Shown here piece by piece: positions 1,451 through 41,237 of a stretch of 41,750 nt of DNA. The first letter of the stretch is position 1; the number at the start of each line of letters is the position of its first letter. Source of the DNA: Candidatus Limnocylindria bacterium (GTDB lineage: Bacteria; Chloroflexota; Limnocylindria; QHBO01); the NCBI GenBank assembly GCA_036560105.1, contig DATBRU010000137.1, positions 1 to 41,750 on the forward strand, in the 5' to 3' direction. A program made the translations under genes and the position numbers. Below the pieces are notes generated by a model. The model ran no database searches. It was not told the origin of the DNA and saw only the letters and a program-made list of their open reading frames with translations.

Positions 1451-1470
1451 CGGTGGATAGTACGCCCCGC

Positions 1471-2418: not shown

Positions 2419-2509
2419 GGGGCGAGCATGGGCTCACGGCTCAGCGCGGTCACCGGTCGGATCGCCGCGCGCGACTACGTCGTTCGGCCCCGGTAGCATT
2501 CAGCCTTCC

Positions 2510-3184
2510 ATGGCTGACGACGCACCGATCAGGTTCGAGCTGCGCCGAGGGGCCGTGACAGCGGTGCCCCTCGGGATCGCGGTCGGGTTGTTCGGCGTCT
2601 CGTTCGGGGTGCTCTCGGCGACGTCGGGCGGGATGGGCGCACTCCCCGCGATCGTGATGAGCGCGACGACCTTCGCCGGCTCGGCCCAGTTCGCCGCCGC
2701 TTCGGTGCTGTCGAGCGGGGGTCAGCCGCTCGCCGCGATCGCCGCCGCGCTCCTGCTGAACGCTCGCTATCTGCCGATCGGCGTGAGCGTGGCGCCGTAC
2801 CTCACCGGTGGCCCGGTGCGCAGGTTCCTCCAGGCCCAGCTCGTCGTGGACGAGTCGTGGGCGATCGCGGCGCAGGGCGAGGGCCGCTTCGATTCGAGCC
2901 GTCTCGTCGGCGCGGGGATCGTCCTGTGGCTGTGCTGGGTCGGGGGCACGATCATCGGCGCCATCGGCGGCGAGGCGCTCGGCGACCCGACCGTCCTTGG
3001 TCTCGACGCCGCCTTTCCCGCCCTGTTCCTGGCCCTCCTGGTCGGGCAGCTCGGGTCACGCCTCGCCGTCGTCGCCGCGCTGCTCGGTGCCGGTATCGCC
3101 GTGGCGCTCGTTCCCTTCACCCCGCCCGGCGTGCCGATCATCGCCGCGGCGCTGGCGGCGCTCATCGGGCTCGTGCGCCGATGA
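2510..3184 (+). CDS. azlC: AzlC-family branched-chain amino acid exporter subunit
   Basis: 224 aa (MADDAPIRFELRRG...). It is polytopic and carries AzlC-like GSAQF and LLLNARY segments. Its stop overlaps the ATG of the following small hydrophobic gene (ATGA). Confidence 0.85.
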   Translation: MADDAPIRFELRRGAVTAVPLGIAVGLFGVSFGVLSATSGGMGALPAIVMSATTFAGSAQFAAASVLSSGGQPLAAIAAALLLNARYLPIGVSVAPYLTGGPVRRFLQAQLVVDESWAIAAQGEGRFDSSRLVGAGIVLWLCWVGGTIIGAIGGEALGDPTVLGLDAAFPALFLALLVGQLGSRLAVVAALLGAGIAVALVPFTPPGVPIIAAALAALIGLVRR

Positions 3185-18319: not shown

Positions 18320-20325
<2,006 letters not shown>

Positions 20326-20329
<4 letters not shown>

Positions 20330-20802
20330 GAATCCTCACCGGGGATGAAATTCCGGTCGGAAGGCAGCGCTCCCGGCTCTGGAGCCACGTAGTTCTCGTC
20401 GTGCTTGACGATGACCTGGGTGGCCTGGAACACGCCATCGATCCCGAGCCTGCCCTCCACCACGGCTCCCGAGCCCTCGCGGAAGGATGCCGTCGGGGCG
20501 GTGGTCGTGTGGACGGCGATCCGCTCGTCGCCATCGGTCAGCACGAAGGTGAGGTCGTACGGGTCGTCGGCCTGCACGATCGAGCCGTCGAGCACCATGC
20601 CGCCCAGTCGAACCGTGGTGTCGATGGCGTCGTCGCCACGGTCGAGCAGCTCGGTCGGAGTGACGTAGTAGACCAGCGCGTTGCCGACGCTGGAGAAGGC
20701 CAGGTAGCCGATGACGACCACCACCACGCCGACCAGGACAACGATGCCCCACGGCCTCCGCGGCGGTGGCAGCACCGGCTCGACGGGCGGCGCGACCGTC
20801 AT
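20326..20802 (-). CDS. ccmE: Haem chaperone CcmE
   Basis: 158 aa with an N-terminal anchor and an OB fold. The haem-binding motif VKHDENY (HxxxY) is present. Confidence 0.9.
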
Positions 20803-20897
20803 TGCGACCGGAGGCGACGCCAGAGCGTGACGGTGTAGAGCGCGAGCCCGCCGATGATCACGACGTAGGCGGCGATGACGAACTCGACGTCGGTCAT
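20799..20897 (-). CDS. ccmD: Haem exporter protein CcmD
   Basis: 32 aa (MTDVEFVIAAYVVIIGGLALYTVTLWRRLRSQ) with a single TM helix. It has ATGA overlaps with both ccmC and ccmE. The call is based on position and size. Confidence 0.6.
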   Translation of the reverse strand: MTDVEFVIAAYVVIIGGLALYTVTLWRRLRSQ

Positions 20898-21607
20898 CGG
20901 GATGCCTCCGCGGTTCGCGCGCTGGCCAGCCGGTCGAGGCGTGCCTCCTGCTCGCGCTGCCCCTGGGCCCTCGCCAGCTGGTAGCGGCGGATCATGAGGT
21001 ACAGCCACGTCAGCGTGAAGGCCGCGACCATGCCGAGCAGCGTGCCCACGAACGCCATCGGTGCGGCTGGATTGAGGACCCGATCCGGCGAGCCGATCGT
21101 CGCCCCCTGGTGCAGTCCGCGCCACCACTCGACGCTGAAATGGACGATCGGGATGTCGATGGCCGCCACGATCCCGACGATGGCGGCGCGCGTCGCGCGG
21201 CGCTCGGGGTCATCGGTCAGGCGCCGGAGGAGCAGGTAGCCGACATACAGCGCCAGGAGCAGCGCCGTGGTGGTCAGGCGTGGGTCCTCCCACTGCCAGA
21301 AGACGCCCCACACCGGCCGGCCCCACATCATCCCGCCCCAGATCGCGAACGCCGTGAACATGACGCCGATCTCGGCACCCGACAGTGCCACCGCATCGAA
21401 GCGCAGGTCCCGCTTCCAGAGCCACAGGACGCTGCCGACGGCGGTCACCCCGAAGGACAGGTACGCCAGCCAGGCCGATGCGACGTGGACGTACATGATC
21501 CGCTGCGCATCGCCCTGGTTGAGGTCTGCGGGCACCACGAAGAGCGCAACGGCCACCGCGACGGTGACGGCGACGAGCGCCACGAACCCCAGGATGCGGG
21601 TCTTCAT
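20894..21607 (-). CDS. ccmC: Haem exporter protein CcmC
   Basis: It carries the tryptophan-rich motif WGRPVWGVFWQWEDPRL and is polytopic. ATG 21607 is immediately preceded by an in-frame TTG at 21610. A charged C-terminal tail of ~30 aa is present. Confidence 0.9.
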   Translation of the reverse strand: MKTRILGFVALVAVTVAVAVALFVVPADLNQGDAQRIMYVHVASAWLAYLSFGVTAVGSVLWLWKRDLRFDAVALSGAEIGVMFTAFAIWGGMMWGRPVWGVFWQWEDPRLTTTALLLALYVGYLLLRRLTDDPERRATRAAIVGIVAAIDIPIVHFSVEWWRGLHQGATIGSPDRVLNPAAPMAFVGTLLGMVAAFTLTWLYLMIRRYQLARAQGQREQEARLDRLASARTAEASR

Positions 21608-22296
21608 CAATCCTCCAGCAGGTAGCCATAGGTGGCTGCTCCGGCCGCGACCATGATGACGTCGAACGCGGCCAGCAGCTGGAGCCAGGCCCCGAGCTCG
21701 CCGAACGGGTCGCCCCCCAGCGCCGCCGATGTCGCCTTCACCGCGGCGAGCAGCAGGGGTGCGAGCACCGGCAGCATGAGCAGCGGGAGCATCACCTCGC
21801 GCGCCCGGAGCCGGACCGTGAGCCCGGCGTAGAACGTTCCGACGGCCGCGATCCCGATGGTGCCCAGCACGACCGTCGCCAACAGCGGGAGCAAGGCTCC
21901 GCCGACGTCGACCGCGAAGAGGATCCCCACCGCCCCAAGGACCACGAGCCCGAGCACGAGCATGATCGCGAAGCCGCCCAGCGCCTTGCCGGCGTAGATG
22001 GCGCGCCGCGGAACCGGGTACAGGGCGAGCTGGTCGAGAGCTCCGTCATCGGTCTCGAGGAGGTGGAGCCGGCTCACGGCGAGCGTCCCGGCAAAGATCA
22101 GGGCCAGCCACAGCAGCCCAGGGGCGGCCGCCGCCAGGCGAGCTGCGTCAGGGCCCAGCGCAAATCCGAACAGCAGGAGGACCACGGCCGAGAAGAAGAG
22201 CGCCCCGACCGCAGCGTGGCGGCCGCGCAGCTCGGCGCGCGCGTCCTTGCGGGCAATCGCCAACGCCAGCGTCGCTTCGCGGCGCAAGGTGCTCAT
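21607..22296 (-). CDS. ccmB: Haem exporter permease CcmB
   Basis: 229 aa with six hydrophobic helices. It sits between ccmA and ccmC with an ATGA overlap with ccmA and a 1-nt overlap with ccmC. Confidence 0.85.
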   Translation of the reverse strand: MSTLRREATLALAIARKDARAELRGRHAAVGALFFSAVVLLLFGFALGPDAARLAAAAPGLLWLALIFAGTLAVSRLHLLETDDGALDQLALYPVPRRAIYAGKALGGFAIMLVLGLVVLGAVGILFAVDVGGALLPLLATVVLGTIGIAAVGTFYAGLTVRLRAREVMLPLLMLPVLAPLLLAAVKATSAALGGDPFGELGAWLQLLAAFDVIMVAAGAATYGYLLED

Positions 22297-23060
22297 CGGG
22301 TTGCCACCACCACGCGACGCTCGGCCGGGACGCCGACCGGCGTGCTGATCACGCCCATCCCGTCCACATCGGACACGAGGCCTCGGTCGAGGGTGACCCG
22401 CGCATCGAGATGGGGCTCCAGGCGATCGGTGCTGTGCGACGCGACGAGGACGGTGACGCCCACATCCCGCCAGGCGGCCATGAGCTGCGCCACGAGGCCG
22501 ACGCCCTCGTCATCCAGAGCAGCCGTCGGCTCGTCCAGCAGCACGAGCGAGGCCTGGCCGAGAAGGATGCGGCCAAGGGCGACGCGCTTGCGCATCCCGG
22601 CCGAGAAGCCCCGCACGCGGTCGTCGGCACGGTCGGAGAGGCCCATGTCGGCCAGTGCGCGCGCGACGCGGACCCGGCGGTCGGGTGTCCCGAGCATCGT
22701 CGCCGCGAAGTCGAGGTTCTCGCGCGCCGTGAGGTCGTCGTACAGGCCGGTGTCGTGCGACAGGTAGGCGACGCGCGCGCGGACGAGCGCCGCATCCCGG
22801 TCAAGGTCGAGCCCATCGATCCGGGCGGTTCCGAACGATGATCGGATGGCGGTGGCAAGGAGGCGCAGCAATGTCGTCTTCCCGGCGCCGTTCGGGCCGA
22901 GCAGGGCCACGGCCCGTCCAGCCTCGACCGTGAGCGAGACGCCGGCGAGCGCCGCGTTGCCCGCGAAGAGGCGCGCGAGGTCGACGGTGACGACCGCTGG
23001 GGGGCGCTGATCGGGTGCCCCGAGGGAGCGGGGCGAGACGTAGATCGTGGTCTGCGGCAT
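22293..23060 (-). CDS. ccmA: Haem ABC exporter ATP-binding protein CcmA
   Basis: Walker A GPNGAGKTT, signature FSAGMRKRV and Walker B VLLDEPTAALD are present. The start is ATG 23060, with an alternative GTG at 23090. Confidence 0.88.
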   Translation of the reverse strand: MPQTTIYVSPRSLGAPDQRPPAVVTVDLARLFAGNAALAGVSLTVEAGRAVALLGPNGAGKTTLLRLLATAIRSSFGTARIDGLDLDRDAALVRARVAYLSHDTGLYDDLTARENLDFAATMLGTPDRRVRVARALADMGLSDRADDRVRGFSAGMRKRVALGRILLGQASLVLLDEPTAALDDEGVGLVAQLMAAWRDVGVTVLVASHSTDRLEPHLDARVTLDRGLVSDVDGMGVISTPVGVPAERRVVVATR

Positions 23061-23205
23061 GCTCGACACGCGGGGCGAAGGGTGGGCCACCGCACTATGC
23101 GTGCCTCGTTCGGAGGCGTCAAATGGTCGTGGGGTGGCGTAACAATGTGCGTAACGCTCGGTGAGACCCGGGCCGACAAGCTTCGATCAGCGGGAGGCAC
23201 GACCT

Positions 23206-28927: not shown

Positions 28928-29353
28928 ATGACGATGTCCGAGACTCCTCGAGAATCGATCTCGCTCACCTCGCCCGCTCCGACGAGCGAGCTGCTCGTAT
29001 CGGTCACCGAGGCGGCTGCGAAGAAGGTGATCGAGCTGCGCGCACGCGAGGGCAAGGCAGATGCGAACCTCCGCCTCTTCGTGAAGGCCGGCGGCTGCTC
29101 CGGCTTCAGCTACGGCCTCGCCTTCGACGACAAGCTCAATGACGGCGACAAGCTCGAGGATCATGCCGGCGTTCCGGTCGTCATCGATCAGTTCAGCCAG
29201 CAGCATGTTGCCGGTGCCGAGATCGACTACGTCGACTCGCTGATGGGCTCCGGCTTCGCGATCAACAACCCGAACGCGGTGAGCAGCTGCGCCTGCGGCT
29301 CCTCGTTCAACACCGATGGCTCACCCGCCAAGGCAGGCGGCTGCGCCCACTGA
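28928..29353 (+). CDS. HesB/IscA-family iron-sulfur cluster insertion protein
   Basis: Motifs LRLFVKAGGCSGFSYGLAFD and the C-terminal SCACGSSF (three conserved Cys) are present. It also has ~25 extra N-terminal and 14 extra C-terminal residues. Confidence 0.88.
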   Translation: MTMSETPRESISLTSPAPTSELLVSVTEAAAKKVIELRAREGKADANLRLFVKAGGCSGFSYGLAFDDKLNDGDKLEDHAGVPVVIDQFSQQHVAGAEIDYVDSLMGSGFAINNPNAVSSCACGSSFNTDGSPAKAGGCAH

Positions 29354-30388: not shown

Positions 30389-31837
30389 CTACTCCCCGGA
30401 GCCGTCGTCCTCGAAGACCGATGCGCCCGCGACGACAGCGGCCGCGCCCCGTCCACCCAGCGCCACCGGCAGAGGCCGTGCGACGGGCACACGGGTCACG
30501 AATCGCTCGACGTGCTCACGCGTGCCGCCGATCTTCAGCTCGTCGAAGAGGAGCCCGAACTTGGCCCGCAGATGGGACCCGACCTCGTCGGCCGCAGCGG
30601 GCGGCAGGGTCCACAGCTGGCGCTTGAACGGCCCGATCGCCTTCTTGCGGGTCTTGTAGAGGAACTGCTCATCGGTCTCGCCGGCCTTGCGCTCGTCCGC
30701 GCAGCTCGCGACGCACCACGCCATCATCTCGGCACGAAGGTCCGCGGGCAGGCCCCCGTCGTCGTAGAGGATGTTCTGGAAGCCTGTGGCGAGGTGGATC
30801 TCTGCGGTGCCGTTCGTGGGGAAGTGGTTGAACGCCTCGTCCGGCAGCGTCGAGGCGCCGTGCTGGACGCATCCCGCCATGCCGTACTCGTCGCGCGCCA
30901 CGCTGGAGAGACGACGCAGCGTGTCGAAATCGATGCTCACGCTGGCGACGCTGCCGTCCGGCAGGACCACGCCCCCGTGGGACGTGCCGGTCTGGACGCT
31001 CACCTTGCTGATCGGCTCGACGCCCGCGCACTGCTCCAGGTAGCCATCGACATAGGCCCGCAGCTCCTCCTCCGTCGAGTTCACCTTGCCGACCTCGCCG
31101 ATCTCGCCGCCGATGCTGATCGTCACACCACGAGGCTGGAGGGATCGGATCAGCCGCGTCAGCGCGGCGGTGTTGTCGGCATTCACGCGCTGCTGCTCGG
31201 CGACCGAGGGCTGCGACAGGTCGACCAGCGTCGAGGCGTCGATGTCGATGTTGAGGAATCCGGCGCCGATGGCCTCGCGGACGAGGTCACGCAGGCCGTT
31301 CAGCTCCCCGTCAGGATCCGTGGCCCACTTCGTGGCGTTGAACTGGAAGTGGTCGCCCTGGAGGAACACCGGCGTCCGCCACCCACTGCGCAGTGCGGCG
31401 GCCAGGATGACAGCGGTGTACTCGGCCGGCCGCTGGTCGGTGTAGGCCATCTCGCTCTTGGCGATCTCGAAGATGACCGCGGAGGCGTCGCGCTCGAGGG
31501 CCGCGGCGAATGCCTGGCGCGCGGTGAGGTACGTCGCGGCCCGCACGTTGATGGCCGGAACGGTGAATGCTGTCGGCGGAACCTCGCCACGGCCGCGGGC
31601 CCGGTACAGGTCGTGGATCGAGGCGGAGCCGCAGCCGAGTGCCTGCGACGCGCTCCAGATGACCCAGCGCGCCGCATCGCGCACGTCCGCGTCGGCTCCG
31701 AAGACCGCCGCGAGGACGATGTCGTCCATCAGCTCTCCCCGCAGCGCCACCTCGTCGTGAACGTCGAGCCCGACGTCGCTGATCGTGGCGACGCTCGAGA
31801 GGCTGCCGCGCAGATCGTCGATGGTGGCAATCGTCAT
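30389..31837 (-). CDS. Class II (metal-dependent) fructose/ketose-bisphosphate aldolase, long form
   Basis: 482 aa with motifs FLQGDH, GGEIGEVG, QTGTSHGG and VQHGAST, which are class II aldolase metal and substrate residues. It lies 9 nt downstream of the preceding membrane ORF on the same strand. Confidence 0.85.
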   Translation of the reverse strand: MTIATIDDLRGSLSSVATISDVGLDVHDEVALRGELMDDIVLAAVFGADADVRDAARWVIWSASQALGCGSASIHDLYRARGRGEVPPTAFTVPAINVRAATYLTARQAFAAALERDASAVIFEIAKSEMAYTDQRPAEYTAVILAAALRSGWRTPVFLQGDHFQFNATKWATDPDGELNGLRDLVREAIGAGFLNIDIDASTLVDLSQPSVAEQQRVNADNTAALTRLIRSLQPRGVTISIGGEIGEVGKVNSTEEELRAYVDGYLEQCAGVEPISKVSVQTGTSHGGVVLPDGSVASVSIDFDTLRRLSSVARDEYGMAGCVQHGASTLPDEAFNHFPTNGTAEIHLATGFQNILYDDGGLPADLRAEMMAWCVASCADERKAGETDEQFLYKTRKKAIGPFKRQLWTLPPAAADEVGSHLRAKFGLLFDELKIGGTREHVERFVTRVPVARPLPVALGGRGAAAVVAGASVFEDDGSGE

Positions 31838-31846
31838 GCGTCCATC

Positions 31847-32185
31847 CTACCGAAGCGCCGAGACGAGGGTGAACGCCAGCAGAGGGGCGATCAACAGCCC
31901 GAGACCCGCCGCCAGCAGGTACCAGTCTCGGGCGGCGCCGTCATCGGCCACGCCTCGACGGCGAAGGCTGCGCGTCCACCATCGCACCGCCGACAGACCG
32001 ATCACGTACAGCACCGCGCCCAGTCCGACAACGCCGATGGCGAAGGATCGGACCTCGTCGCAGTCACCGAAGGCCAGCGGTCCGCCGGGCGGGCATGGGG
32101 CGCTCAGCTCCAGGCCGATGAGGACGCCGGCGCTCGCGATGACGAGGCCCGACCAGGCGAGATGAGCGAGCAGCGACCGATTCAG
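31847..32185 (-). CDS. Hypothetical small membrane protein (about 3 TM), start codon unresolved
   Basis: The frame has a strong GC3 signal and hydrophobic helices (LLAHLAWSGLVIASAGVLIGL..., FAIGVVGLGAVLYVIGLSAV..., WYLLAAGLGLLIAPLLAFTLV). No ATG, GTG or TTG lies between 32341 and the first helix. CTG at 32185 directly abuts the upstream stop. Confidence 0.4.
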   Translation of the reverse strand: MNRSLLAHLAWSGLVIASAGVLIGLELSAPCPPGGPLAFGDCDEVRSFAIGVVGLGAVLYVIGLSAVRWWTRSLRRRGVADDGAARDWYLLAAGLGLLIAPLLAFTLVSALR

Positions 32186-32769
32186 CGGCGGGCGAGCTCG
32201 GTGCTGCGGCTGGCCGCGGCGGCGGCCTCGCGGCCGGTGACACGCCGGAACTCGAACGCCAGGTACACGCAGGCGGCGGCGCCGAGGCCCGCGGCAATCA
32301 ACCCGAAGGCCACCGACTGCAACGTGATGTTCACCGGCCACAGCGACCCGCCGGCGAGGTTGAAGGCCATGATCGGGATGATCATCAGGACGGTGGCGAG
32401 GTAGTTCAGCCCGACGAACAGCCGAAGCGCTGACCATCCGAATCCGCGCCGGCCACGAGACGCCTGGACGAGGACGGCCACCACGATCAGCGCCGCGAAC
32501 GCCGTCATACCGGCACCGTTGGCGATGAGGAAGCCGACATCCTCGCTGAATCGCAGGAACGGGAGCTCGACGGTGACGAGGTAGTAGATGTAGTTCGAGA
32601 CGTAGAAGAGCGAGAAGTACAGGAACAGGAACAGCGGCACGGCCTTCAGCACGGCGACGAGCCACGTCTCGTGGCCGAAGAGCATCCAGCTCATGAAGTC
32701 ATCGGCCCAGCCGAGGAGGCGGTTCACGCCACCCTTCGGGCGGTAGGTCGGATACGCGGTCGTGCTCAT
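32182..32769 (-). CDS. Hypothetical integral membrane protein (about 5 TM) in the Rieske/cyt b operon
   Basis: 195 aa. The ATG lies 10 nt after the cytochrome c stop. Codon usage is good to the end of the frame. I recognise no family. Confidence 0.65.
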   Translation of the reverse strand: MSTTAYPTYRPKGGVNRLLGWADDFMSWMLFGHETWLVAVLKAVPLFLFLYFSLFYVSNYIYYLVTVELPFLRFSEDVGFLIANGAGMTAFAALIVVAVLVQASRGRRGFGWSALRLFVGLNYLATVLMIIPIMAFNLAGGSLWPVNITLQSVAFGLIAAGLGAAACVYLAFEFRRVTGREAAAAASRSTELARR

Positions 32770-32779
32770 CGATTCACCA

Positions 32780-33592
32780 TCAGTCCCCGGTCTGGGTCAG
32801 CAGGAAGGTGATGAGGGCCTGCAGCGCGCTGTCGGAGAGCGAGTCTTCCGGATGCGGCGGCATGCCCGTGGCGTTCCCGTCGTTGTAGTTGGCGGACGAG
32901 TCCCGGATCCACAGCTCCAGGAAGTTGCGGGGATCCTCCGCGTAGTCCGCCTCCATCTCGGCGCGACCGGACGGCTCGTTGAACCCGCTCAGGTCGACGA
33001 GCCCGGAGCCGATGGTCGAGATGTTGGGTCCGGCCGTCGAGCCGGTCAGGTCCGCGCCGTGACATCCGGCGCAGCCCGCGGAGGCGAAGACCTCGGCGCC
33101 GGCTTCGGGCGTGTCCGGCACCTCCTCGGGCAGATCGGTCGCTGCGTCCTCGGCCCAACCGGTGACCAGGGCGACGACCGCGTCGATCTGCTGCACGTTC
33201 AGCGGGCCGCCGACCTCGGCGCTCCAGGCCGGCATCGGCGAGTTCACGTTGCCGGAGACGACCACGCCGCCGTAGCTGACGGCGAGGTGGACGTAGTTGG
33301 GATTGACCGCCAGCTTGTTGGCGAGCGATGCCGTGTGCAGGCTCGGCGCACGGCGTCCGTCGGGATCGTTCGGGATCGCGCCGCCGGTTCCATCGGCGCC
33401 GTGGCATCGCGCGCAGCCGGCGGCAGCCGGCTCGGTCTCGGAGTCGCTGAAGACGACCTCGCCGTACTCGAGCAGCTCCTCCTCCTGGGCGACCGCGATC
33501 GCACCGCGTCGTGCCGGATCGGTGAACCAGAAGAGCATCGTGAACGCGGCGAGCACGGTGACGAGCAGGACGCCGAGCGCCTTGATGCGCAT
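32780..33592 (-). CDS. Membrane-anchored di-haem cytochrome c
   Basis: 270 aa with an N-terminal anchor. It has two CxxCH motifs (CARCH, CAGCH), each followed by a distal Met-containing segment (SPMPAW, GMPPH). It lies 3 nt after the Rieske gene. Confidence 0.88.
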   Translation of the reverse strand: MRIKALGVLLVTVLAAFTMLFWFTDPARRGAIAVAQEEELLEYGEVVFSDSETEPAAAGCARCHGADGTGGAIPNDPDGRRAPSLHTASLANKLAVNPNYVHLAVSYGGVVVSGNVNSPMPAWSAEVGGPLNVQQIDAVVALVTGWAEDAATDLPEEVPDTPEAGAEVFASAGCAGCHGADLTGSTAGPNISTIGSGLVDLSGFNEPSGRAEMEADYAEDPRNFLELWIRDSSANYNDGNATGMPPHPEDSLSDSALQALITFLLTQTGD

Positions 33593-33595
33593 CGC

Positions 33596-34252
33596 TCAGC
33601 CGGTGCAGTGGGGCATGTCGGTCGGCCCGCGTTCGTCGAACCCGATCGTCCCGGGGGGTGGACCGCTGACGACCTCGCTCGTATCGACGATGTAGGTCCC
33701 GTCCTCGACGATGACATTGAAGCGATCCATGCCGCGCGGCGCGGGGCCGTCGCGCTTCTCGCCGAGCACCGTGTACTTCGATCCATGGCACAGGCATTCG
33801 AACCACTGGCTCTCGTTGCACAGCTGCGGCACCTGGCAGCCGAGGTGCGGGCACTTGCGGTACAGCGCCATGACGGAACGTTCCGCCGGTGGCAGATCCG
33901 GTGAGACGTCGGCCCCGGGATCGGGCACCGGGTTGGCGACCGTCCCGTCGCCGTCGACGCGCTCCTTCGCGGCGGGCACGTTCACGAAGAACAGGTTCGC
34001 CTGGTTGTAGACGTAGGGCAGCCCGTTCGCCCAGTCCGGCCAGACCGCGTTGATCTCGTCAGCCGTTCCCAGCGTGATCTGGGCACCAAGCCCCTCGGTC
34101 AGGTTCGGCCACAGGAAGGCGATGGTGCCGCCGAGGAACTCGAGCGTCAGCAGACCGACTCCGACACCGAGCATCCGGCGCATGAAGCCGCGCCGGGTGA
34201 TCTCACCGGTCGGCGGGCCATGGACGGGGCCGTAGGAGGCGTGCTGCGTCAT
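33596..34252 (-). CDS. Rieske [2Fe-2S] subunit of the Rieske/cytochrome b complex
   Basis: 218 aa starting at ATG 34252, with an ATGA overlap with the upstream gene. It has a Tat motif and anchor (TRRGFMRRMLGVGVGLLTL) and Rieske boxes CPHLGC and CLCHGS. Confidence 0.9.
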   Translation of the reverse strand: MTQHASYGPVHGPPTGEITRRGFMRRMLGVGVGLLTLEFLGGTIAFLWPNLTEGLGAQITLGTADEINAVWPDWANGLPYVYNQANLFFVNVPAAKERVDGDGTVANPVPDPGADVSPDLPPAERSVMALYRKCPHLGCQVPQLCNESQWFECLCHGSKYTVLGEKRDGPAPRGMDRFNVIVEDGTYIVDTSEVVSGPPPGTIGFDERGPTDMPHCTG

Positions 34253-34866
34253 AGCGTGAAGAACAGGCCGTCCCAGGGCCAGACCCAGTTCCAGCCCGGT
34301 CCGCGGAAGAAGGAGCCGATGAAGGTCACGATCAACCCGCCGATCATGATGCAGAGGAAGAAGACCCACATCATCTTCCGGTCGCGCGCGGCCTTGTACG
34401 GCGAGCGGTCGATGTACGGGATGATGATGAGCCCGCCAAGGTAGACCGGGATGACGAGCACGCCGGCCACGGTCGGGTTGAAGTAGCTGAGCAGCTCCTG
34501 GAGGCCGAGGAAGTACCACGGCGCCTTGGCCACGTGCGGGGTGACCGCCGGGTTGGCCATCTCCTCAAGCGGGGCGGTGATGAACACCGAGGCCACCACC
34601 AGCAGGCCGGTGATGAGCATCCCCATCAGGAACTCGGGCCGCAGCAGGTGGGGCCAGGTCAGGACGGTCTCATCGGGGCGCTTGTCAACACGGACCATCG
34701 ACTCCTGCTTCACGTAGGCGAGGAGGCGGAAGCGCTCCGTGCCCGGCACGCCGGGCGGCCCGGGCAGCTTGGGTCCCGTGCCCGGGGCCAAGATCGGCGC
34801 ACGCTCGGGGGCCTGCGTCGGCACGTTCTTGTCGGCCGTGGCGTTGGGTCGCTTCTCGATCGTCAT
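34249..34866 (-). CDS. Cytochrome b C-terminal half (subunit IV / PetD-like)
   Basis: 205 aa with three TM helices. The Qo-loop motif region is VAKAPWYFLGLQELL, which is the PEWY-box position. It follows the b6-like gene after 13 nt. Confidence 0.88.
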   Translation of the reverse strand: MTIEKRPNATADKNVPTQAPERAPILAPGTGPKLPGPPGVPGTERFRLLAYVKQESMVRVDKRPDETVLTWPHLLRPEFLMGMLITGLLVVASVFITAPLEEMANPAVTPHVAKAPWYFLGLQELLSYFNPTVAGVLVIPVYLGGLIIIPYIDRSPYKAARDRKMMWVFFLCIMIGGLIVTFIGSFFRGPGWNWVWPWDGLFFTL

Positions 34867-34879
34867 CGGTCCATTCCCA

Positions 34880-35623
34880 TCACACCGGCCCGCTGATCCC
34901 GCCGTCCTTCCTGATGCGCCAGAAGTGGACGATCATCAGGATGGCCGCAACGAGCGGGAAGAAGATGACGTGCGCGACATAGAAGCGCAGGAGCGTGCCC
35001 TGCCCGACGGAGATTCCGCCGAGGATGAAGAAGCTCGACTCGCTGGCCAGCAGCGGCGCGTACGTCGCCATCTGGGTGCCGACCGTGATGGCCCAGAACG
35101 CGATCTGGTCCCACGGCAGCAGGTAGCCGGTGAAGCTGAGCGCCAGCGTGAAGAAGAGGAGCAGGACGCCGATGACCCAGTTGAACTCACGCGGCGGCTT
35201 GTAGGCGCCGTGGTAGAAGACGCGGATCATGTGCAGGAAGACGGTCAGCACCATCAGATGCGCCGCCCATCGATGCATGTTGCGCACGAAGGCGCCGAAG
35301 GCAACCGACGCTTCGATCGACTGGATGTCCTGGTAGGCCTGGCTGATGGACGGGACGTAGAAGAACATCAGGTACAGGCCGGTCACGGTCAGGTTCAGGA
35401 ACAGGAAAAAGCTGATCCCGCCCAGGCAGAACGTGTACGTGTAGCGCACCGCGTGACGCTTGACCCGAACCGGGTGCAGGTGGAGGAACACGTTGTTCAT
35501 CACCGCCAGCGCGCGAGTGCGGCTCGTCGTCGGGTACGGCTGGCGGAACAGGCTGCGCCAGGCCGACGATTCCTTCACCCAGCGGGTGATCGGGTTGCCA
35601 CCCTGGCCGGGAATGTCGCTCAT
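34880..35623 (-). CDS. Cytochrome b6-type subunit (N-terminal half of cytochrome b, PetB/QcrB-like)
   Basis: 247 aa with four helices. The haem-ligand pairs are H-x13-H ([15 protein letters not shown]) and H-x14-H ([16 protein letters not shown]). A b6-like FCLGG segment is present. The ATG overlaps the upstream stop (ATGA). Confidence 0.92.
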
Positions 35624-37629
35624 CGGTCCGCCGTCATGCCAGCCTGCTGGCCGACCTGTCCGAGCACATTGTCCTTGTAGCTCTCCAACAGAACCTTCCC
35701 GTCAGGCGTGAACCGCTCGAGCTCGAGGCGGTCCATGGTGATGCAGTTCGTGGGACAGCGCTCGACGCACAGGTTGCACCGGATGCACCGTTCCTCGTCG
35801 ATGATCATGGCGATCCCGCGCGGCCACGATTGGAAGAATCCCTGCTCCGGGTCGTCGCCGCCGACCTGCGCCTTGTCGATCATGTAGATCACGCCCTCGG
35901 GGCACACGTCGGCGCAGAGCCCGCACAGGATACAGCGGGGCCCGTCGATGTTGATGTTGTGGTTGCACTGGAGGCAGCGCGTTCCCTCGGCGATGGCACC
36001 ACGCGTGTCGTAGCCGACCTCGACGAGCGAGCGGAAGTCCCGGCGCAGCTCCGGCGGGGCCATCGGGATCTCCTGGCGCGGGGTCGCCTCGTAGAAGCGT
36101 GGCATGTCGTGCTCGAGGCTCTGGGTGATGACCGCGCGGTTGATGACCGGCAGTTCCTCGAGCTCGGTGCCTCGCAGCCCGGCCAGCCAGCGGTCGACCG
36201 AACGGGCCGCCCGTCGCCCCAGCCCGGCCGCCTCGATGATCGTCGCCGGCCCCGTGACGAAGTCGCCGACGGCGAAGATGCCGTCCGAGGTGGTGCCGAA
36301 CGTATCGGCGTTGATCGAGACATTGCCGCGGTTGAAGTCGAACGTCAGCGAGTTCAGCGGACGGCCGTCCTTGTCCTTCGGCGTGGTCCCGTTGAGCGGC
36401 TGCGTGCGCCAGGAGCTGAGCGACCCGCCCTCGACCACCGAGCGCGTATCGGTGACCCCGACGTGGCGGTTCAGCTTGGCCCCGAACTCTCCGAGGACGT
36501 TGTTGTCCGACGCCTGGCTCGTGCAGGGGATGACCATGTCGCACGGAACGGTGAACTCGCTGCCCGGGATGGGCTCGGCACTGCGCCGCCCGCTGGCATC
36601 CGGCGGGCCGAGCTGGGTGCGCTGGAAGACGATCCCGTTGACGCGCCCGTCGGCGCCGGCGGTCACCTCGACCGGGGACGCGAAGAATTCGAACCCGACG
36701 CCCTCGAAGCGGGTCTCGTGCTGCTCTTCCTCGTCGACCACCATCTCGTCAGGGCCGCGGCGGTAGAAGATCGTCGAGGTCGTGGCGCCGAGCCGCAGAG
36801 CGGTGCGCGATGAGTCCATGGCCGTGTACCCGCCACCGATGACGACGACGTGCTTCCCGACCCATTGCGGCTGCCCGAGGTTCGCGCGCTTGAGGAAGTC
36901 GACGCCGTAGATCACGCCCTCGAGCTCCTCGCCGGGCACGTTCATGGCCACCGGGTACATGCAGCCCGTGGCAACGACGACCGCGTCGTGACGCTGGCGC
37001 AGCTGCTCGAGGGTGATGTCCCGGCCGATCTCGACGTTGTAATGGAACTGGACGCCGTGCTTGGCGACCCAGTTGACATCGAGCTCGATGACGTCGCGCG
37101 GGAGGCGGAAGGCCGGAACGCCGATGAGGGTCGTCCCGCCGCCGCTGGGCAGGGCCTCGTACACGTGGACGTCGTGGCCCCAGCCGCCGAGCTCCTTGGC
37201 GGCCGCCAGGCCCGCCGGTCCGGCGCCGATGACCGCCACGCTGCGGCCCGTCGCCGGCTGCACCTCCACCTGGTCGGGCATGTTGTTGCCGTAATGCCAG
37301 TCGACGAGGAATCGCTTCATGGCGCGGATGGCCAGCGGCTTGTCGATGTCGGCCCGGCGGCAGGCCTTCTCGCACGGCGCGGAGCACACGTAGCCGCAGA
37401 TCGCGGCAACGGGGTTCGGGTCGCGAGCGAGGATGTAGCCCTCCTCGAAGCGGCCCTCGGCGGCCAGCATGAGGTAGCCCCGGCAATTCGTGTTGACCGG
37501 GCAGCCTTCCTGGCACTCGATATTGCACTGAAGCCAATCGACGCCGACCTCGGCGGTCTGGAACCTCAGCGGAATCGCCGTATCACTGATCACTGCGTCG
37601 TCGTCGCTCTCCGCGCGGTCTTGACCCAT
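35620..37629 (-). CDS. GltD/NfnB-like NAD(P)H-dependent FAD/Fe-S oxidoreductase fused to a C-terminal 2x[4Fe-4S] ferredoxin domain
   Basis: 669 aa with no TM helix. N-terminal GltD-type Cys clusters are [10 protein letters not shown] and [13 protein letters not shown]. Dinucleotide folds are [14 protein letters not shown] and [12 protein letters not shown], and GDF..GP is also present. The C-terminal region carries [12 protein letters not shown] and [12 protein letters not shown]. Confidence 0.88.
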
Positions 37630-37894
37630 GGGCTATCGAAGGAGCGGCAGGACCGATGCTACCCGTTCGCTCGCAGGCGGCGCAAGGCGGGGCGGCAGTT
37701 CGCGGCGCGCGAAGGTGAGCGATACATCGGTCACAGGGCGCATGAGATGTCTTCGGCGCGGGCCTTGACCGACGTGCCGACCACCAGCACACATGAGGGC
37801 CGCGCTCACGCCCCGTTCGTGCTCAGCGATGGCCGATCGATCGCTCAAACCAAGCGCAGATGGCAGATCCTGCTGGAATTGGTCGCCAGATCGA

Positions 37895-38419
37895 TCATCG
37901 CCGAGTTCGGCGCTCCAGCTCGTCCAGGTAGGCGGCGATCGCGGCTGTGCTGTGTCGCCGCCACAGCTCCACGTGGTCGACCGTCCGTGAGCGCGCCGGA
38001 CGCCGGAGGGTGCTGAACGCGGGAGCCAACGCGTCGCGTTGGGCGCGAATGAGGGAACGCGGCGATGCTTCCAGACGGTCAAGGAGCACGAGCTTCAGCC
38101 GGAACTCGAGGCGCATGTCGCGCAGATGGTGGACGGGGCGCTCGAGCCAGGCACCCTGAAGGCGTCGACCGGCCGGGGTGATGCGATGCACCCGACGCTG
38201 CGGGCCTGCCTCCCCTGCCTCGACGCGGGTCGGCCGAGCCAGGCCCTCGGCCACGAGGTGGTCCAGGGCCCGGTAGGCGAGCGAGCGACGCACGGTCAGG
38301 ACGCGGCCGATCGAGCCGTCGGCGGCGAGCTCACGCGCGATCGCGAAGCCGTGGGTCGGGCCCTCGGCCAGGAGGCCGAGGACGGCGTGCTCGCTGAGAG
38401 ACAGTCGCGGCTCATCCAT
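37895..38419 (-). CDS. PadR-family transcriptional regulator
   Basis: 174 aa starting at ATG 38419. PadR wHTH elements are present: LSEHAVLGLLAEGPTHGFAIAREL, YRALDHLVAEGL, and ITPAGR. It is divergent from modA. Confidence 0.8.
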   Translation of the reverse strand: MDEPRLSLSEHAVLGLLAEGPTHGFAIARELAADGSIGRVLTVRRSLAYRALDHLVAEGLARPTRVEAGEAGPQRRVHRITPAGRRLQGAWLERPVHHLRDMRLEFRLKLVLLDRLEASPRSLIRAQRDALAPAFSTLRRPARSRTVDHVELWRRHSTAAIAAYLDELERRTRR

Positions 38420-38445
38420 GCCGAGCGAGGGTAAACCACGACCCC

Positions 38446-38475
38446 TTGCGGCGGGCTGGTCCGAGTCGGTATTCT
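38446..38475 (+). promoter_or_regulatory. Candidate promoter for modABC
   Basis: TTGCGG (38446-38451) is followed by an 18-nt spacer, then TATTCT (38470-38475). It lies ~44 nt upstream of ATG 38519. This is a sequence match only. Confidence 0.25.
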
Positions 38476-38518
38476 CAATGTGACTACTCACTCGTCCCGA
38501 TCATCGGAGGCCTCCACG

Positions 38519-39340
38519 ATGTCCCGACCTCGCGTCGCCACCGGTGTGACGATCCTGTTCCTCGTGTCGGGATGCGGCACCGGGGCGTCGTCGACGGCCC
38601 CCTCCGAACCGCCGGCCTCGCTGCCTTCCTCGGACGCGGCTGAATCGGTCGCGCCGAGCCTCGAGGGCGAGCTGCTCGTCTTCGCCGCCGCATCGCTGAC
38701 CGATGCGCTGGCCGAGGTGGAGTCCGCCTTCGAGGACGCGAACCCCGGCGTCGACGTCGAGCTGAACCTTGCCGGCAGCTCGGCCCTGCGTGAGCAGATC
38801 CTCGAGGGCGCTCCCGCGGATGTCTTCATGTCGGCCAACGCCTCGAACATGGACCAGGTGATCGAGGCGGAGGAGGCGACCGAGTCCGCGATCTTCGTGA
38901 CGAACCTCCTCCAGATCGCGGTCCCGGCCGGAAACCCCGGTGGCGTCACCGGCCTCGACGACTTCGCGGACGATGCCCTGTTGATCGGCCTCTGCGCCGA
39001 GGAGGTCCCGTGTGGTGACTTTGGTCGCCAGGCATTGGAGAATGCCGGCGTGACTCCGGCCATCGACACCAACGAGCCTGACGTCCGGGCGCTGCTCACG
39101 AAGATCGCGGAAGACGAGCTTGACGCCGGCATCGTCTACGTCACCGACGTCCTCGCTCAGGACTTCGCCGATGACGTCGAGGGCATCGACATTCCGCCGG
39201 ACGACAACGTGCTGGCCGAGTACCCGATCTCGGCGCTGAGCAACGCCCCGAACCCCGACGCCGCCGCCGCGTTCGTGGCGTTCGTCCTCTCGAGCGAGGG
39301 GCAGGCGATTCTGAACGAGTACGGCTTCGGCTCCCCTTGA
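38519..39340 (+). CDS. modA: Molybdate ABC transporter substrate-binding lipoprotein ModA
   Basis: GGAGG lies 8 nt before ATG 38519. It has lipobox LVSGC and ModA-like segments VFAAASLTDAL, GSSALREQI, ADVFMSAN and IVYVTD. Confidence 0.88.
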   Translation: MSRPRVATGVTILFLVSGCGTGASSTAPSEPPASLPSSDAAESVAPSLEGELLVFAAASLTDALAEVESAFEDANPGVDVELNLAGSSALREQILEGAPADVFMSANASNMDQVIEAEEATESAIFVTNLLQIAVPAGNPGGVTGLDDFADDALLIGLCAEEVPCGDFGRQALENAGVTPAIDTNEPDVRALLTKIAEDELDAGIVYVTDVLAQDFADDVEGIDIPPDDNVLAEYPISALSNAPNPDAAAAFVAFVLSSEGQAILNEYGFGSP

Positions 39341-40149
39341 CCGAATCGGGTCAGGACGGAACCGCCTGGCGAGGACGGCCGCCCGCCGTCCTCGTCGTGC
39401 TGGCCGCGATCGGTCTTGGGATCTTCGTCCTGCCCTTCCTGGGCCTCCTCGCCCGAACGCCGTGGGGGGAGCTGGCGAGCCTGCTCACAGGGCCCCTGGT
39501 CGTCGAGGCGCTGCGCCTGTCCCTCATCAGCTCCTTGGCCGCCACCGCCATCGCCCTCGTCGTCGGGGTGCCGCTGGCGTGGGTGCTGGCACGCGTCGCC
39601 TTCCCGGGCCGCGCCTTGGTGCGAGGCCTCGTGGTCCTCCCGCTCGTCCTGCCGCCGGTCGTCGGCGGCGCGGCCCTGCTGTTCGCGCTCGGGCGACGTG
39701 GCCTCATCGGGGGTCCCGTCTATGACGCGACCGGATTGCTGCTCCCCTTCTCGATCTGGGGCGTGATCCTCGCCAGCACGTTCGTGGCGATGCCGTTCCT
39801 CGTCATCACGGTCGAGGCGGCACTCCGCAACCTCGACGCACGTTACGAGGCGGCCGCCGCGACGCTGGGGGCCGGACGCTGGACGATCATGCGCCGCGTG
39901 ACACTGCCGATGATCGCGCCGTCGCTCGCTGCCGGGCTCGTGCTCACCTGGGCCCGGGCGCTCGGAGAGTTCGGGGCGACGATCACGTTTGCCGGCAACC
40001 TCGAAGGGCGCACCCAGACGCTGCCGCTCGCGGTGTTCGTGGCGCTCGAGAGCGACCGCGACACGGCCGTCGCGCTCAGCCTCCTGATGGTCGCCGTATC
40101 GCTGACCGTGCTGATCGTCCTGCGCGACCGGTGGCTGCGCGCGTTGTGA
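39337..40149 (+). CDS. modB: Molybdate ABC transporter permease ModB
   Basis: 270 aa. The TTG start overlaps the modA stop (TTGA). It has an EAA loop (EAAAATLGAGRWTIMRRVTLP) and FAGN, which is typical of ModB/CysTW permeases. Confidence 0.9.
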   Translation: MTESGQDGTAWRGRPPAVLVVLAAIGLGIFVLPFLGLLARTPWGELASLLTGPLVVEALRLSLISSLAATAIALVVGVPLAWVLARVAFPGRALVRGLVVLPLVLPPVVGGAALLFALGRRGLIGGPVYDATGLLLPFSIWGVILASTFVAMPFLVITVEAALRNLDARYEAAAATLGAGRWTIMRRVTLPMIAPSLAAGLVLTWARALGEFGATITFAGNLEGRTQTLPLAVFVALESDRDTAVALSLLMVAVSLTVLIVLRDRWLRAL

Positions 40150-41237
40150 ACGAGCCCGGCGAGCCGGGCGGGCTCGATGCCCGCCTCGTACTGCAGCGCG
40201 GCACGTCATTCCGGCTCGACCTGTCACTCGCGATCCCGCCCGGTCGCACGGTCGCCCTGCTGGGTCCGAATGGGGCCGGCAAGTCCACTGCCGTCGCGGC
40301 TATCGCGGGGCTCCTGCGCCTCGAGAACGGCTGGATCCGCCTCGACGGTCAGACGCTCGACGAGCCCGGCGTCGGGCGATACGTGCCGCCCGAGGCGCGG
40401 CGGGTCGGCGTGGTCTTCCAGGAGTACCTGCTCTTCGGTCACCTGACCGTCGTCGAGAACATCGCGTTCGGCCCGCGCAGCCGTGGCGTCCCCCGCGATG
40501 AGGCAAGGGCCCGTGCGGCGGAATGGATCGAGCGGCTCGGGATCGACGGGAACGGCGAGCGCAAGCCGACGGACCTCTCGGGCGGGCAGGCGCAGCGGGT
40601 GGCGCTGGCGCGCGCGCTCGTGACCGAACCGAAGCTGCTGCTCCTCGACGAGCCGCTCGCGGCACTCGACGTGACGACCAGGGTCGAGCTGCGCCGGGTG
40701 CTGGCCGAGCACCTGTCCGCCTTCACCGGTCCGCGCCTCCTGATCACCCACGACCCGACCGAGGCCTTCCTCCTCGCCGATGAGATCCACGTCATCGAGG
40801 ATGGCAGCGTCACGCAGTCGGGCAGCGCGGACGAGATCCGGCGGCGGCCGCGCACCCCGTACGTGGCGGACCTGTCGGGCTCGAACCTCGTGATCGGCAC
40901 AGCCGCCGCCGGTGTCGTCGACACCGGGACGCATCGGCTCCATGTCGCCGATCACGAGATCGGCGGCCCGGTCCTTGCCGTGATCCGTGCGACCGCCGTC
41001 GCCCTGCACCTTCAACGGCCCGAGGGGAGCCCGCGCAATGCCTGGGCGACGAGGATCGTGCGCCTCGAGCACCTTGGTGACCGCGCACGCCTGCTCACCG
41101 GGGACCCGCTGCCGCTGACCGCCGAGGTCACCGAGGAGTCGGCAACGGAGCTGGCGCTGACCGTCGGCGCCGAGGTCTGGATCTCGATCAAGGCGACCGA
41201 GATCGCCGTCGAACCGTACCTGCCGCCGATCGCCTAG
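40131..41237 (+). CDS. modC: Molybdate ABC transporter ATP-binding protein ModC with a C-terminal TOBE-like domain
   Basis: Walker A GPNGAGKST, signature LSGGQAQRV and Walker B LLLDEPLAALD are present, plus a C-terminal ~120-aa beta domain. The start is GTG 40131, or GTG 40146 with a GTGA overlap with modB. Confidence 0.88.
   Translation: MAARVVNEPGEPGGLDARLVLQRGTSFRLDLSLAIPPGRTVALLGPNGAGKSTAVAAIAGLLRLENGWIRLDGQTLDEPGVGRYVPPEARRVGVVFQEYLLFGHLTVVENIAFGPRSRGVPRDEARARAAEWIERLGIDGNGERKPTDLSGGQAQRVALARALVTEPKLLLLDEPLAALDVTTRVELRRVLAEHLSAFTGPRLLITHDPTEAFLLADEIHVIEDGSVTQSGSADEIRRRPRTPYVADLSGSNLVIGTAAAGVVDTGTHRLHVADHEIGGPVLAVIRATAVALHLQRPEGSPRNAWATRIVRLEHLGDRARLLTGDPLPLTAEVTEESATELALTVGAEVWISIKATEIAVEPYLPPIA

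Follow-up and report, generated by a model that had tools for sequence, protein, structure and literature searches.

Among complexes built on a Rieske protein and cytochrome b, the APWY clade (Kao and Hunte, 2014) spans several phyla, including Chloroflexi, Planctomycetes, and Nitrospirales, and its Rieske proteins have been predicted to be of mid-plus to high potential (PMC4122944). This clade is taken here to correspond to subfamily G of Dibrova et al. (2013/2017), whose work already documents the co-occurrence of subfamily G complexes with large NAD(P)-binding Fe-S oxidoreductases and builds an evolutionary scenario on it (PMC5600118). That work, citing de Almeida 2016, reports complexes holding both cytochromes b and oxidoreductase subunits in Kuenenia (Dibrova 2017; PMC5600118). 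More recently, in 2025, the anammox versions were modeled with AlphaFold3, and in the models of the Kuenenia complexes an additional haem b, ligated by His43/His62, sits at the dimer interface beside the oxidoreductase (PMC12954380). On the side of the flavoprotein, the NfnL-like FAD of NfnABC has been characterized as a port for NADPH that does not bifurcate and that terminates a linear series of clusters (PMC11829005). Here, we describe a Rieske/cytochrome b6 operon led by an NfnL/GltD-like flavoprotein gene in a 41,750-nucleotide stretch of DNA (hereafter, the window; contig DATBRU010000137.1 of assembly GCA_036560105.1) from a soil or freshwater Candidatus Limnocylindria bacterium of the Chloroflexota. 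A preliminary description of this DNA had held the anammox planctomycetes to be the only known parallel to such an arrangement, a view contradicted by Dibrova et al., by the presence of Chloroflexi in the APWY clade (PMC4122944) and by our own survey.

Taken as a whole, the observations are best explained, we believe with moderate confidence, by a single APWY-type membrane complex in which the flavoprotein is a real subunit on the cytoplasmic side, with an exit of electrons from quinol to NAD(P)+ as the favored mode. The parts of this proposal differ in strength: that the flavoprotein is physically associated with the complex and exchanges electrons with it appears likely, whereas the direction from quinol to NAD(P)+ is favored only weakly and tentatively, and is the weakest step. 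What is new here is the modular nature of the cytoplasmic partner, a motif in the cytoplasmic tail of subunit IV, and the fusion of that motif to stand-alone flavoproteins.

Seven minus-strand open reading frames (ORFs) form one tight block (37629-31847 in the ORF list; window G+C ~70%) in the order flavoprotein, cytochrome b6, subunit IV, Rieske protein, dihaem cytochrome c, and two membrane proteins. Stop and start codons overlap as ATGA both between the flavoprotein and b6 genes (35620-35623) and between the subunit IV and Rieske genes (34249-34252), and the remaining junctions measure 3-13 nucleotides. A scan of the block recovered no promoter-like site, and terminator-like sites were not above chance. 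The co-directional genes and both overlaps thus lie where the preliminary description had placed them, and its gene assignments were all correct, with Pfam, searches of PDB sequences, and AlphaFold2/Foldseek in agreement. The genes and domains of the block are as follows:

35620..37629, minus strand: cytoplasmic Fe-S flavoprotein with an NfnL/GltD-like NAD(P)(H)/FAD module and a C-terminal 2x[4Fe-4S] ferredoxin domain (669-residue ORF; Pfam and fold match)
37285..37533, minus strand: N-terminal two-cluster domain of the flavoprotein, with eight cysteines (C35, C39, C43, C49, C78, C82, C86, and C90) and K105 (37315-37317)
36190..37242, minus strand: FAD and NAD(P)(H) Rossmann domains of the flavoprotein (GAGPAGL at about residues 134-141 and GGGYTAMD at residues 265-272; Pfam)
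35734..35976, minus strand: C-terminal ferredoxin domain of the flavoprotein, with motifs invariant in the family; proposed docking and wire module towards b6 and subunit IV
34880..35623, minus strand: cytochrome b6, 247 residues (Pfam Cytochrome_B, E 3e-44)
34249..34866, minus strand: subunit IV, 205 residues, three predicted transmembrane helices (Pfam Cytochrom_B_C; transmembrane scan)
33596..34252, minus strand: Rieske [2Fe-2S] protein, 218 residues (Pfam Rieske; CPHLGC...CLCHGSKY at 33773-33853)
32780..33592, minus strand: membrane-anchored dihaem cytochrome c, 270 residues (two Pfam Cytochrom_C domains; CARCH at 33401-33415 and CAGCH at 33059-33073)
32182..32769, minus strand: membrane protein 1, 195 residues, about four transmembrane helices (no Pfam family above threshold)
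31847..32185, minus strand: membrane protein 2, about 112 residues, three transmembrane helices (translated from CTG; no Pfam family above threshold)

The evidence that bears most directly on a link between the flavoprotein and the membrane proteins is the conservation of their adjacency. Our survey combined a profile search with distant family members, followed by neighborhood look-ups, and a scan of species genomes with a generic FAD GxGxxG pattern, whose 600 matches are a sample and not a census and give no per-phylum frequencies. The flavoprotein was found to adjoin Rieske/b6 genes in at least five phyla, namely Chloroflexota, Brocadiales, Acidobacteriota, Nitrospirae, and Eisenbacteria. 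The preliminary description had reckoned with a lack of conserved synteny as a sign against its proposal; instead, the adjacency recurs well outside Planctomycetes. The order is Rieske, b, flavoprotein, subunit IV, and HAO-like in Brocadia (L002), and flavoprotein, Rieske, b6, subunit IV, and cytochromes c in a Terriglobia locus (L003), while a metagenome-assembled genome (MAG) from Chloroflexi (L004) has a gene order identical to that of the window, and the flavoprotein is adjacent to Rieske/b6 in one further MAG (L008). Further linked loci, from Chloroflexia, Limnocylindria (two), Nitrospirae, Acidobacteriota (three), and Eisenbacteria, came from the sampled species genomes. Among the close relatives, locus L012 of a Limnocylindria MAG shows the same gene order as the window, with b6 90% identical; in the distant lineages, by comparison, the linked flavoproteins are only 34-39% identical to that of the window. 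The 4-nucleotide stop/start overlap after the flavoprotein is retained in L001, L003, and L004. Chance does not account for the arrangement, as close relatives and distant genomes alike show the gene order of the window. In a rough neighbor-joining tree, the linked and stand-alone flavoproteins of ~600 residues share one superclade, apart from the multidomain relatives; no cytochrome b domain fused to a family flavoprotein was present in the nine multidomain representatives that were examined for Rosetta-stone evidence.

These linked loci vary in their membrane components. In three of them (L024 8358-9962, L026 8451-9815, and L031 8819-10237), subunit IV is joined to b6 in a single long cytochrome b, and the flavoprotein remains adjacent; the Terriglobia locus L003 carries a second, conventional complex with a Rieske protein and a cytochrome b-c fusion (946-3031, minus strand) ~4 kb from the flavoprotein-linked one. 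The b6 proteins of Acidobacteriota are without the cysteine of the CxGG motif, reading YYLGS, YYLGG, or FWLGT at this position (L024, L026, L031; L003, L008). As these versions keep the flavoprotein without the cysteine for haem cn, that haem is not required for the link to the flavoprotein, in contrast to the earlier suggestion of a connection through the ci/cn haem.

A wider view of the partner came from scanning metagenomes with the b6 alignment, which yielded 80 loci of the clade, 40 of them classifiable for their partner. Fourteen of these encode a full flavoprotein, another fourteen only a ferredoxin, and twelve neither. The ferredoxin-only partner is an ORF of ~138 residues directly upstream of b6 that is homologous solely to the C-terminal ferredoxin domain of the flavoprotein; such loci include L112, L126, L137, L141, L143, L159, L161, and L167, with a 2x[4Fe-4S] ORF ~400-500 nucleotides upstream of b6. 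These loci show that it is therefore the ferredoxin domain that constitutes the recurrent partner of b6, with the NAD(P)/FAD part as an optional extension. As for the partner-less members of the clade, two are flanked by a HEAT-repeat protein (L150 3113-4129 and L162 3885-4925), and an ORF of ~1250 residues lies downstream in each (6973-10758 in L150 and 6871-10596 in L162); that of L150 is a multihaem cytochrome c.

The partner classes are mirrored in subunit IV. Its cytoplasmic N-terminal tail bears in the window the motif RLLAYVK (R47-K53; 34708-34728, minus strand), which was scored across the loci with one fixed pattern, R-h-h-[ASTG]-h-h-[KR], and a shuffle control. This simple pattern replaced a hidden Markov model of the subunit IV tail, abandoned as underpowered with its 11 training sequences and dominated by Limnocylindria-like sequences. 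The motif is present in 13 of 18 full-flavoprotein loci and all 10 ferredoxin-only loci, and in none of the nine partner-less loci, that is, in 23/28 with a partner versus 0/9 without (Fisher p = 1.6e-5, for sequences that are related and not phylogenetically independent). The same motif recurs in an N-terminal extension of 25 of the 316 family flavoproteins, as against 0.0007 per protein in shuffled sequences. Among proteins with a known context, it is seen in three of four stand-alone flavoproteins and in none of the five b6-linked ones, which have short N-termini. In the AlphaFold2 model of the stand-alone protein P0291, the motif forms a beta-strand (E11-19), with a mean predicted local distance difference test (pLDDT) score of 87 over residues 11-20. 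The occurrence of one motif in subunit IV in some systems and fused to the flavoprotein in others therefore amounts to Rosetta-stone-type evidence for binding of the Fe-S module by the tail, and argues for a predicted physical docking of that module on subunit IV.

The membrane core itself bears, at the level of sequence, every defining feature of the APWY clade that we tested. Two pairs of histidines in b6 (H117/H131 and H218/H233, with 14- and 15-residue spacing) are invariant in the b6 alignment, as expected of a four-helix cytochrome b that would hold haems bL and bH, and a CLGG haem-cn motif follows a phenylalanine (F-C66-L-G-G; C66 at 35426-35428). In place of PEWY, the separate subunit IV carries the Qo motif APWY at residues 115-118 (34513-34524), with P116 replaced by alanine in one of six aligned homologs and the other three positions invariant. 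It is without the two-helix insertion seen in L003, L004, and L008; the subunit IV of Brocadia (L002) is instead extended at its C-terminus. The Rieske protein has a twin-arginine signal-like RRGF at residue 20, the complete set of ligand and disulfide residues (C134-P-H136...C139 and C153-L-C155-H156), and, in CHG-S158-K-Y160, the Ser158/Tyr160 pair typical of high-potential Rieske proteins, to whose sequence type it belongs. Its closest solved relatives, 9rk3_A and 9rk4_A, are Kustd1480 and Kuste4569 of Kuenenia, which bears out the likeness to the anammox Rieske/cytochrome b clusters drawn in the preliminary description; their measured midpoint potentials are +335 mV and +303 mV, respectively (PMC12954380). 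The dihaem cytochrome c, with a transmembrane helix at residues 5-23 in a transmembrane scan, is conserved in L010, L012, L001, L009, and L004. Thus, judging by these motifs, the block encodes a Q-cycle core, in which b6 offers two b-haem sites and the motif for haem cn, the three-helix subunit IV contributes APWY, and the Rieske protein is of high-potential type.

The b6 protein of the window aligns with its best PDB match, cytochrome b6 of b6f, only from residue 63 on; ahead of this lies an N-terminal extension of 62 residues bearing H48 (35480-35482), and a PDB search with the N-terminal 65 residues matched no solved chain. H48 is invariant in 14 of 14 linked b6 sequences and in 80 of 80 metagenome loci of the clade, and it aligns with H47 of the Brocadia ortholog. 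We infer that it is the counterpart of Kuenenia His43 and His62, since the numbering offsets, including a 14-residue planctomycete insertion, are in accord with the published His43/Arg247 and His62/Arg266-Lys267. As a marker of flavoprotein-bearing complexes, H48 was considered and rejected, the carriers including the 12 partner-less loci with adequate flanks.

The flavoprotein is predicted to be a soluble protein with NAD(P)(H)- and FAD-binding sites and enough cysteines to ligate four [4Fe-4S] clusters, and a transmembrane scan found no transmembrane segment in it. Pfam finds all the domains that the preliminary description had named, with Fer4_20 at residues 33-115, Pyr_redox_2/Pyr_redox at 130-336, and two Fer4 motifs at 566 and 615 (the latter from Pfam and a motif listing). 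The domains of the 669-residue protein thus stand as described; its length is probably 657 residues, with a start at GTG 37593, because close homologs are almost all 657-659 residues long and GGAGAG lies upstream of this GTG, but no Shine-Dalgarno sequence precedes the ATG at 37629. In the N-terminal domain, C39, C43, C82, C86, C90, and K105 are invariant across 40 family members, and K105 aligns with Lys-170 of Caldicellulosiruptor saccharolyticus NfnA (alignment to 9bov_A), which ligates the FAD-proximal cluster A7 (PMC11829005); the Kuenenia oxidoreductase subunits also carry a buried lysine at the FAD-proximal cluster (PMC12954380). The glycines and aspartate of the Rossmann motifs (G135/G137/G140 and G265/G267/D272) are likewise invariant in the family alignment. 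An insertion of ~45 residues inside the flavin domains (residues 389-435; 36325-36465, minus strand) has very low pLDDT and is missing from the 616-residue relative P0121 and from more distant homologs.

The AlphaFold2 model of the flavoprotein (pLDDT 84; predicted template modeling score 0.85) has 9bov_A, 8oh5_C, and 9n5u_A as its top Foldseek matches, with E values of 1e-48 to 1e-50 over ~660 columns that include the ferredoxin-like segment. By sequence, too, the top PDB matches are the NfnL-like parts of the Bfu-type NfnABC/StnABC (E ~1e-100), followed by NfnB/NfnL, GltD, and DPD. Its closest homologs, at 83-92% identity, come from MAGs of Chloroflexota and Candidatus Limnocylindria, and one 90%-identity cluster of close homologs comprises 613 sequences from public metagenome assemblies. 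The window protein and the Brocadia subunit P0336 belong to the same family: a profile search recovers both, they are 37% identical, and they fall in the same superclade of the rough neighbor-joining tree. A candidate equivalence of Arg511 of Kuste4570 with K586 of the window was dropped since K586 is not conserved in other linked proteins.

In the mechanism that we propose, the C-terminal ferredoxin domain would dock on the cytoplasmic face of the complex, partly through the beta-strand-forming peptide R47-K53 of subunit IV, creating a linear wire that may run NAD(P)(H) <-> FAD <-> 4 x [4Fe-4S] <-> b-haem chain. An additional haem b, ligated by H48 from each of two b6 subunits, might form part of this route, much as the AlphaFold3 modeling of 2025 has it for the anammox complexes. 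The flavin would be an entry or exit port and not a bifurcating center, by analogy with the NfnL-like domain of NfnABC/StnABC. Quinol would be oxidized at Qo, one electron passing uphill in potential to the Rieske center, cytochrome c, and an oxidase, with the dihaem cytochrome c as the likely high-potential outlet. The other, strongly reducing electron would pass along the Fe-S wire to NAD(P)+, either replacing the reduction of quinone at Qi or accompanying it, such that the complex might serve as a respiration-driven source of NAD(P)H or as a redox valve. Chloroflexota are presumed to use menaquinone. Combined with a Rieske protein of high-potential type, this presumed quinone would leave the second Qo electron reducing enough for NAD(P)+. 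An argument of this kind, from a high-potential Rieske protein to a reducing second electron at Qo, has been made for anammox bacteria (PMC12954380).

Several points weigh against this proposal. The counts of the subunit IV motif include related sequences and not independent events, and five linked loci of the Acidobacteriota type carry only a degenerate motif. H48, the proposed ligand of the bridging haem, is, as the alignments indicate, a trait of the whole clade and says nothing specific about the flavoprotein. Of eight distant family members examined, four are stand-alone genes; therefore, the flavoprotein can work without an adjacent b6. No member of the APWY clade had been characterized (PMC4122944). 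On the energetic side, a high-potential quinone in the host, if that is what it uses, would weaken the argument for reduction of NAD(P)+, and an aerobic heterotroph has no clear need of quinol-derived NAD(P)H; a literature search on respiration in Limnocylindria found nothing relevant.

The same complex could also be imagined to run in the opposite direction, from NAD(P)H through the Fe-S wire to the b-haem/Qi side, acting as a membrane-anchored NAD(P)H:quinone oxidoreductase (or, with the Qo half, an NAD(P)H:cytochrome c oxidoreductase), or priming Qi as ferredoxin/FNR would in b6f. We regard this as rather unlikely, though it has several facts in its favor: transfer from NAD(P)H to menaquinone is strongly downhill, the homologous module in NfnABC/StnABC is an entry port for NADPH (PMC11829005), the ferredoxin-only variants look like acceptors of low-potential electrons from the cytoplasm, and a descent of such complexes from membrane-anchored dehydrogenases on a small cytochrome b has been proposed (Dibrova et al.; PMC5600118). 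Such a flow, however, would waste ~250-300 mV without obvious coupling, the ground on which it was rejected for Kuenenia (PMC12954380), and it leaves unexplained why a Rieske protein of high-potential type is paired with an APWY Qo site (PMC4122944). The homology of the flavoprotein core to NfnB/NfnL, whose FAD bifurcates in NfnSL (4ylf_B, 5jca_L), and the two separate pairs of clusters flanking its flavin domains might alternatively point to a bifurcating or confurcating Nfn-type flavoenzyme, in which the electrons of NADPH would be split between the C-terminal clusters, leading to the b-haems and quinone, and the N-terminal clusters, leading to a soluble ferredoxin, or would flow in reverse; cytochrome b6 would then be the base of an NAD(P)H:quinone/ferredoxin system similar to FixABCX. 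This appears improbable, given that the best structural matches are to the Bfu-type NfnA/StnC, for which the FAD is expressly stated not to bifurcate and to terminate a linear chain (PMC11829005), that K105 corresponds to the lysine ligand of the non-bifurcating (NfnABC) type at the proximal cluster, and that the operon holds no NfnS/NfnA-like partner or ferredoxin gene.

Equally improbable, in our estimate, is that there is no physical or electronic link at all and that a soluble NAD(P)H:acceptor oxidoreductase is simply co-transcribed with an ordinary menaquinol:cytochrome c reductase. Many family members are indeed stand-alone, and the partner-less members of the clade look complete, with b6, subunit IV, Rieske protein, and cytochrome c. 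Yet, the adjacency has been kept through shuffling of gene order and divergence to so low an identity, the stop/start overlap is conserved, and the subunit IV motif is found only in loci with a partner gene and, in the stand-alone proteins, forms part of the flavoprotein itself; in addition, Kuenenia offers the precedent of complexes with oxidoreductase subunits (de Almeida 2016 as cited in PMC5600118). Returning to the preferred account, a complex with the flavoprotein as a cytoplasmic-side subunit, it can be extended to a broader proposition, which we regard as doubtful: a main quinol:cytochrome c reductase of aerobic Chloroflexota and of other carrier phyla would also serve as an NAD(P)+ reductase driven by respiration, in that bifurcation at Qo, drawn by the high-potential Rieske center and an oxidase, would drive the second electron over the b-haems and the docked flavoprotein to NAD(P)+. 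The variants with only a ferredoxin or with no partner would represent modular cytoplasmic exits, and the subunit IV tail would be a universal docking handle.

Beyond the complex proper, the last two genes of the block and its surroundings deserve description. Membrane protein 1 holds the same position in the Limnocylindria loci L012, L010, and L001 and is possibly a lineage-specific subunit. In L001 and L010, membrane protein 2 is conserved up to its very first residues, and no ATG, GTG, or TTG start occurs near this conserved N-terminus; the seventh ORF probably starts at CTG 32185, which would overlap the preceding stop as CTGA (32182-32185) and mirror both ATGA overlaps. The flanks of the block are as follows:

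37630..37894, minus strand: upstream intergenic region, presumed promoter region of the operon, next to the PadR-family regulator gene (Pfam)
30389..31837, minus strand: class-II aldolase-family protein, 482 residues (Pfam F_bP_aldolase), 9 nucleotides downstream of the seventh ORF

A single weak terminator-like hairpin (37873-37856) lies in the intergenic region, where a search for sigma-70-like sites found none. The aldolase-like gene, which holds the same position in the Limnocylindria relatives L001 and L010, probably extends the block; it may be co-transcribed with the operon, and no functional link to the complex is evident. Directly upstream of the operon lies the gene for the PadR-family regulator (37895-38491), followed by three plus-strand ORFs at 38480-41237 that resemble an ABC-type (molybdate-like) transporter, judged from their translations only. 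The upstream neighbors differ in the relative L001, and an Rrf2 regulator precedes the operon in L004. An IscA/ErpA-like gene for Fe-S biogenesis is located at 28928-29353, and a System I cytochrome c maturation cluster (CcmA, B, C, E, and F) at 18320-23090 on the minus strand, ~10 kb from the operon; the attachment of haem cn in non-photosynthetic carriers of CxGG has been described as unknown (PMC5600118).

With the co-occurrence of the flavoprotein with Rieske/b6 already recorded in several phyla, the window adds a further member to a biochemically uncharacterized clade. Reduction of NAD(P)+ driven by a Rieske/cytochrome b complex has been an open proposal since 2011-2013, a question left unsettled by the anammox bacteria, which grow slowly and have very elaborate complexes. 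The simpler Limnocylindria-type version may be easier to study, and public metagenome assemblies contain its close homologs in large numbers. Concrete predictions on the docking of the cytoplasmic module, for mutation and structure, follow from the ferredoxin-only variant and from the tail motif of subunit IV. If the reading as a generator of NAD(P)H were true, it would change the models of redox balance in several widespread soil phyla.

Compared with the described systems, the window complex shares with the APWY clade/subfamily G the APWY Qo motif, a short b6 with CxGG, a Rieske protein of the Ser/Tyr type, and a patchy multi-phylum spread including Chloroflexi; the main texts of the papers on these groups (PMC4122944; PMC5600118, in its accessible part) describe neither the operon of Limnocylindria nor the ferredoxin-only variant nor the tail motif of subunit IV. 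With the Kuenenia complexes Kuste4569-4574 and Kustd1480-1485 (Kartal 2011/2013; de Almeida 2016; PMC12954380), it has in common the split of b6 and subunit IV, the Rieske protein, an NfnL/GltD-like NAD(P) oxidoreductase with a [4Fe-4S] chain, the lysine by the FAD-proximal cluster, the N-terminal histidine of b6, and the CxGG haem-cn motif. It differs from them in having a dihaem class-I-type cytochrome c where Kuenenia has hexa-/octahaem and HAO-like cytochromes, three helices in subunit IV as opposed to the five of the anammox type, a flavoprotein gene that comes first in the operon and not between those for b and subunit IV, two extra small membrane proteins, and a host from a Chloroflexota MAG lineage without an anammox context. 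The 2025 modeling paper on the anammox complexes makes no mention of the subunit IV tail motif (PMC12954380).

To NfnABC/StnABC (9bov_A, 8oh5_C, 9n5u_A), the flavoprotein is related by the best sequence and fold match, the Lys-ligated proximal cluster, and an NADPH/FAD port ending an Fe-S chain. In contrast, an Fdh/NuoG-like domain follows in those proteins, which associate with NuoEF-like subunits carrying a bifurcating FMN, whereas the window flavoprotein ends after the two clusters of its ferredoxin domain and has a membrane cytochrome b6 as its genomic partner; neither NuoE/NuoF-like genes among the scanned window genes near the operon nor an Fdh-like domain in the flavoprotein were found with Pfam. 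The Fer4_20 two-cluster domain and the FAD/NADPH Rossmann domains are shared with NfnSL, GltD, and the N-terminal half of DPD (4ylf_B, 5jca_L, 6s6s, 1h7w), which are without a C-terminal 2x[4Fe-4S] domain fused in this way and have a proximal-cluster ligand of a different type. The catalytic partners of these enzymes are not found alongside the window flavoprotein: GltB or a DPD counterpart is absent, and neither the operon nor the other scanned window genes include a small subunit of the NfnS/NfnA type ([2Fe-2S] and FAD, NAD-binding).

With the cyanobacterial and chloroplast b6f, finally, the window complex shares the split of b6 and subunit IV, haem cn, and a cytoplasmic (stromal) NADP-linked flavoprotein proposed at the n-side. 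Here, however, the flavoprotein has no relation to plant-type FNR, its gene belongs to the operon, and it brings its own Fe-S wire; moreover, the Qo motif is APWY and not PEWY, and the b6 N-terminal extension is missing from all solved structures. Across this range, the Limnocylindria-type operon, with its dihaem cytochrome c and three-helix subunit IV, is the simplest version that we found.

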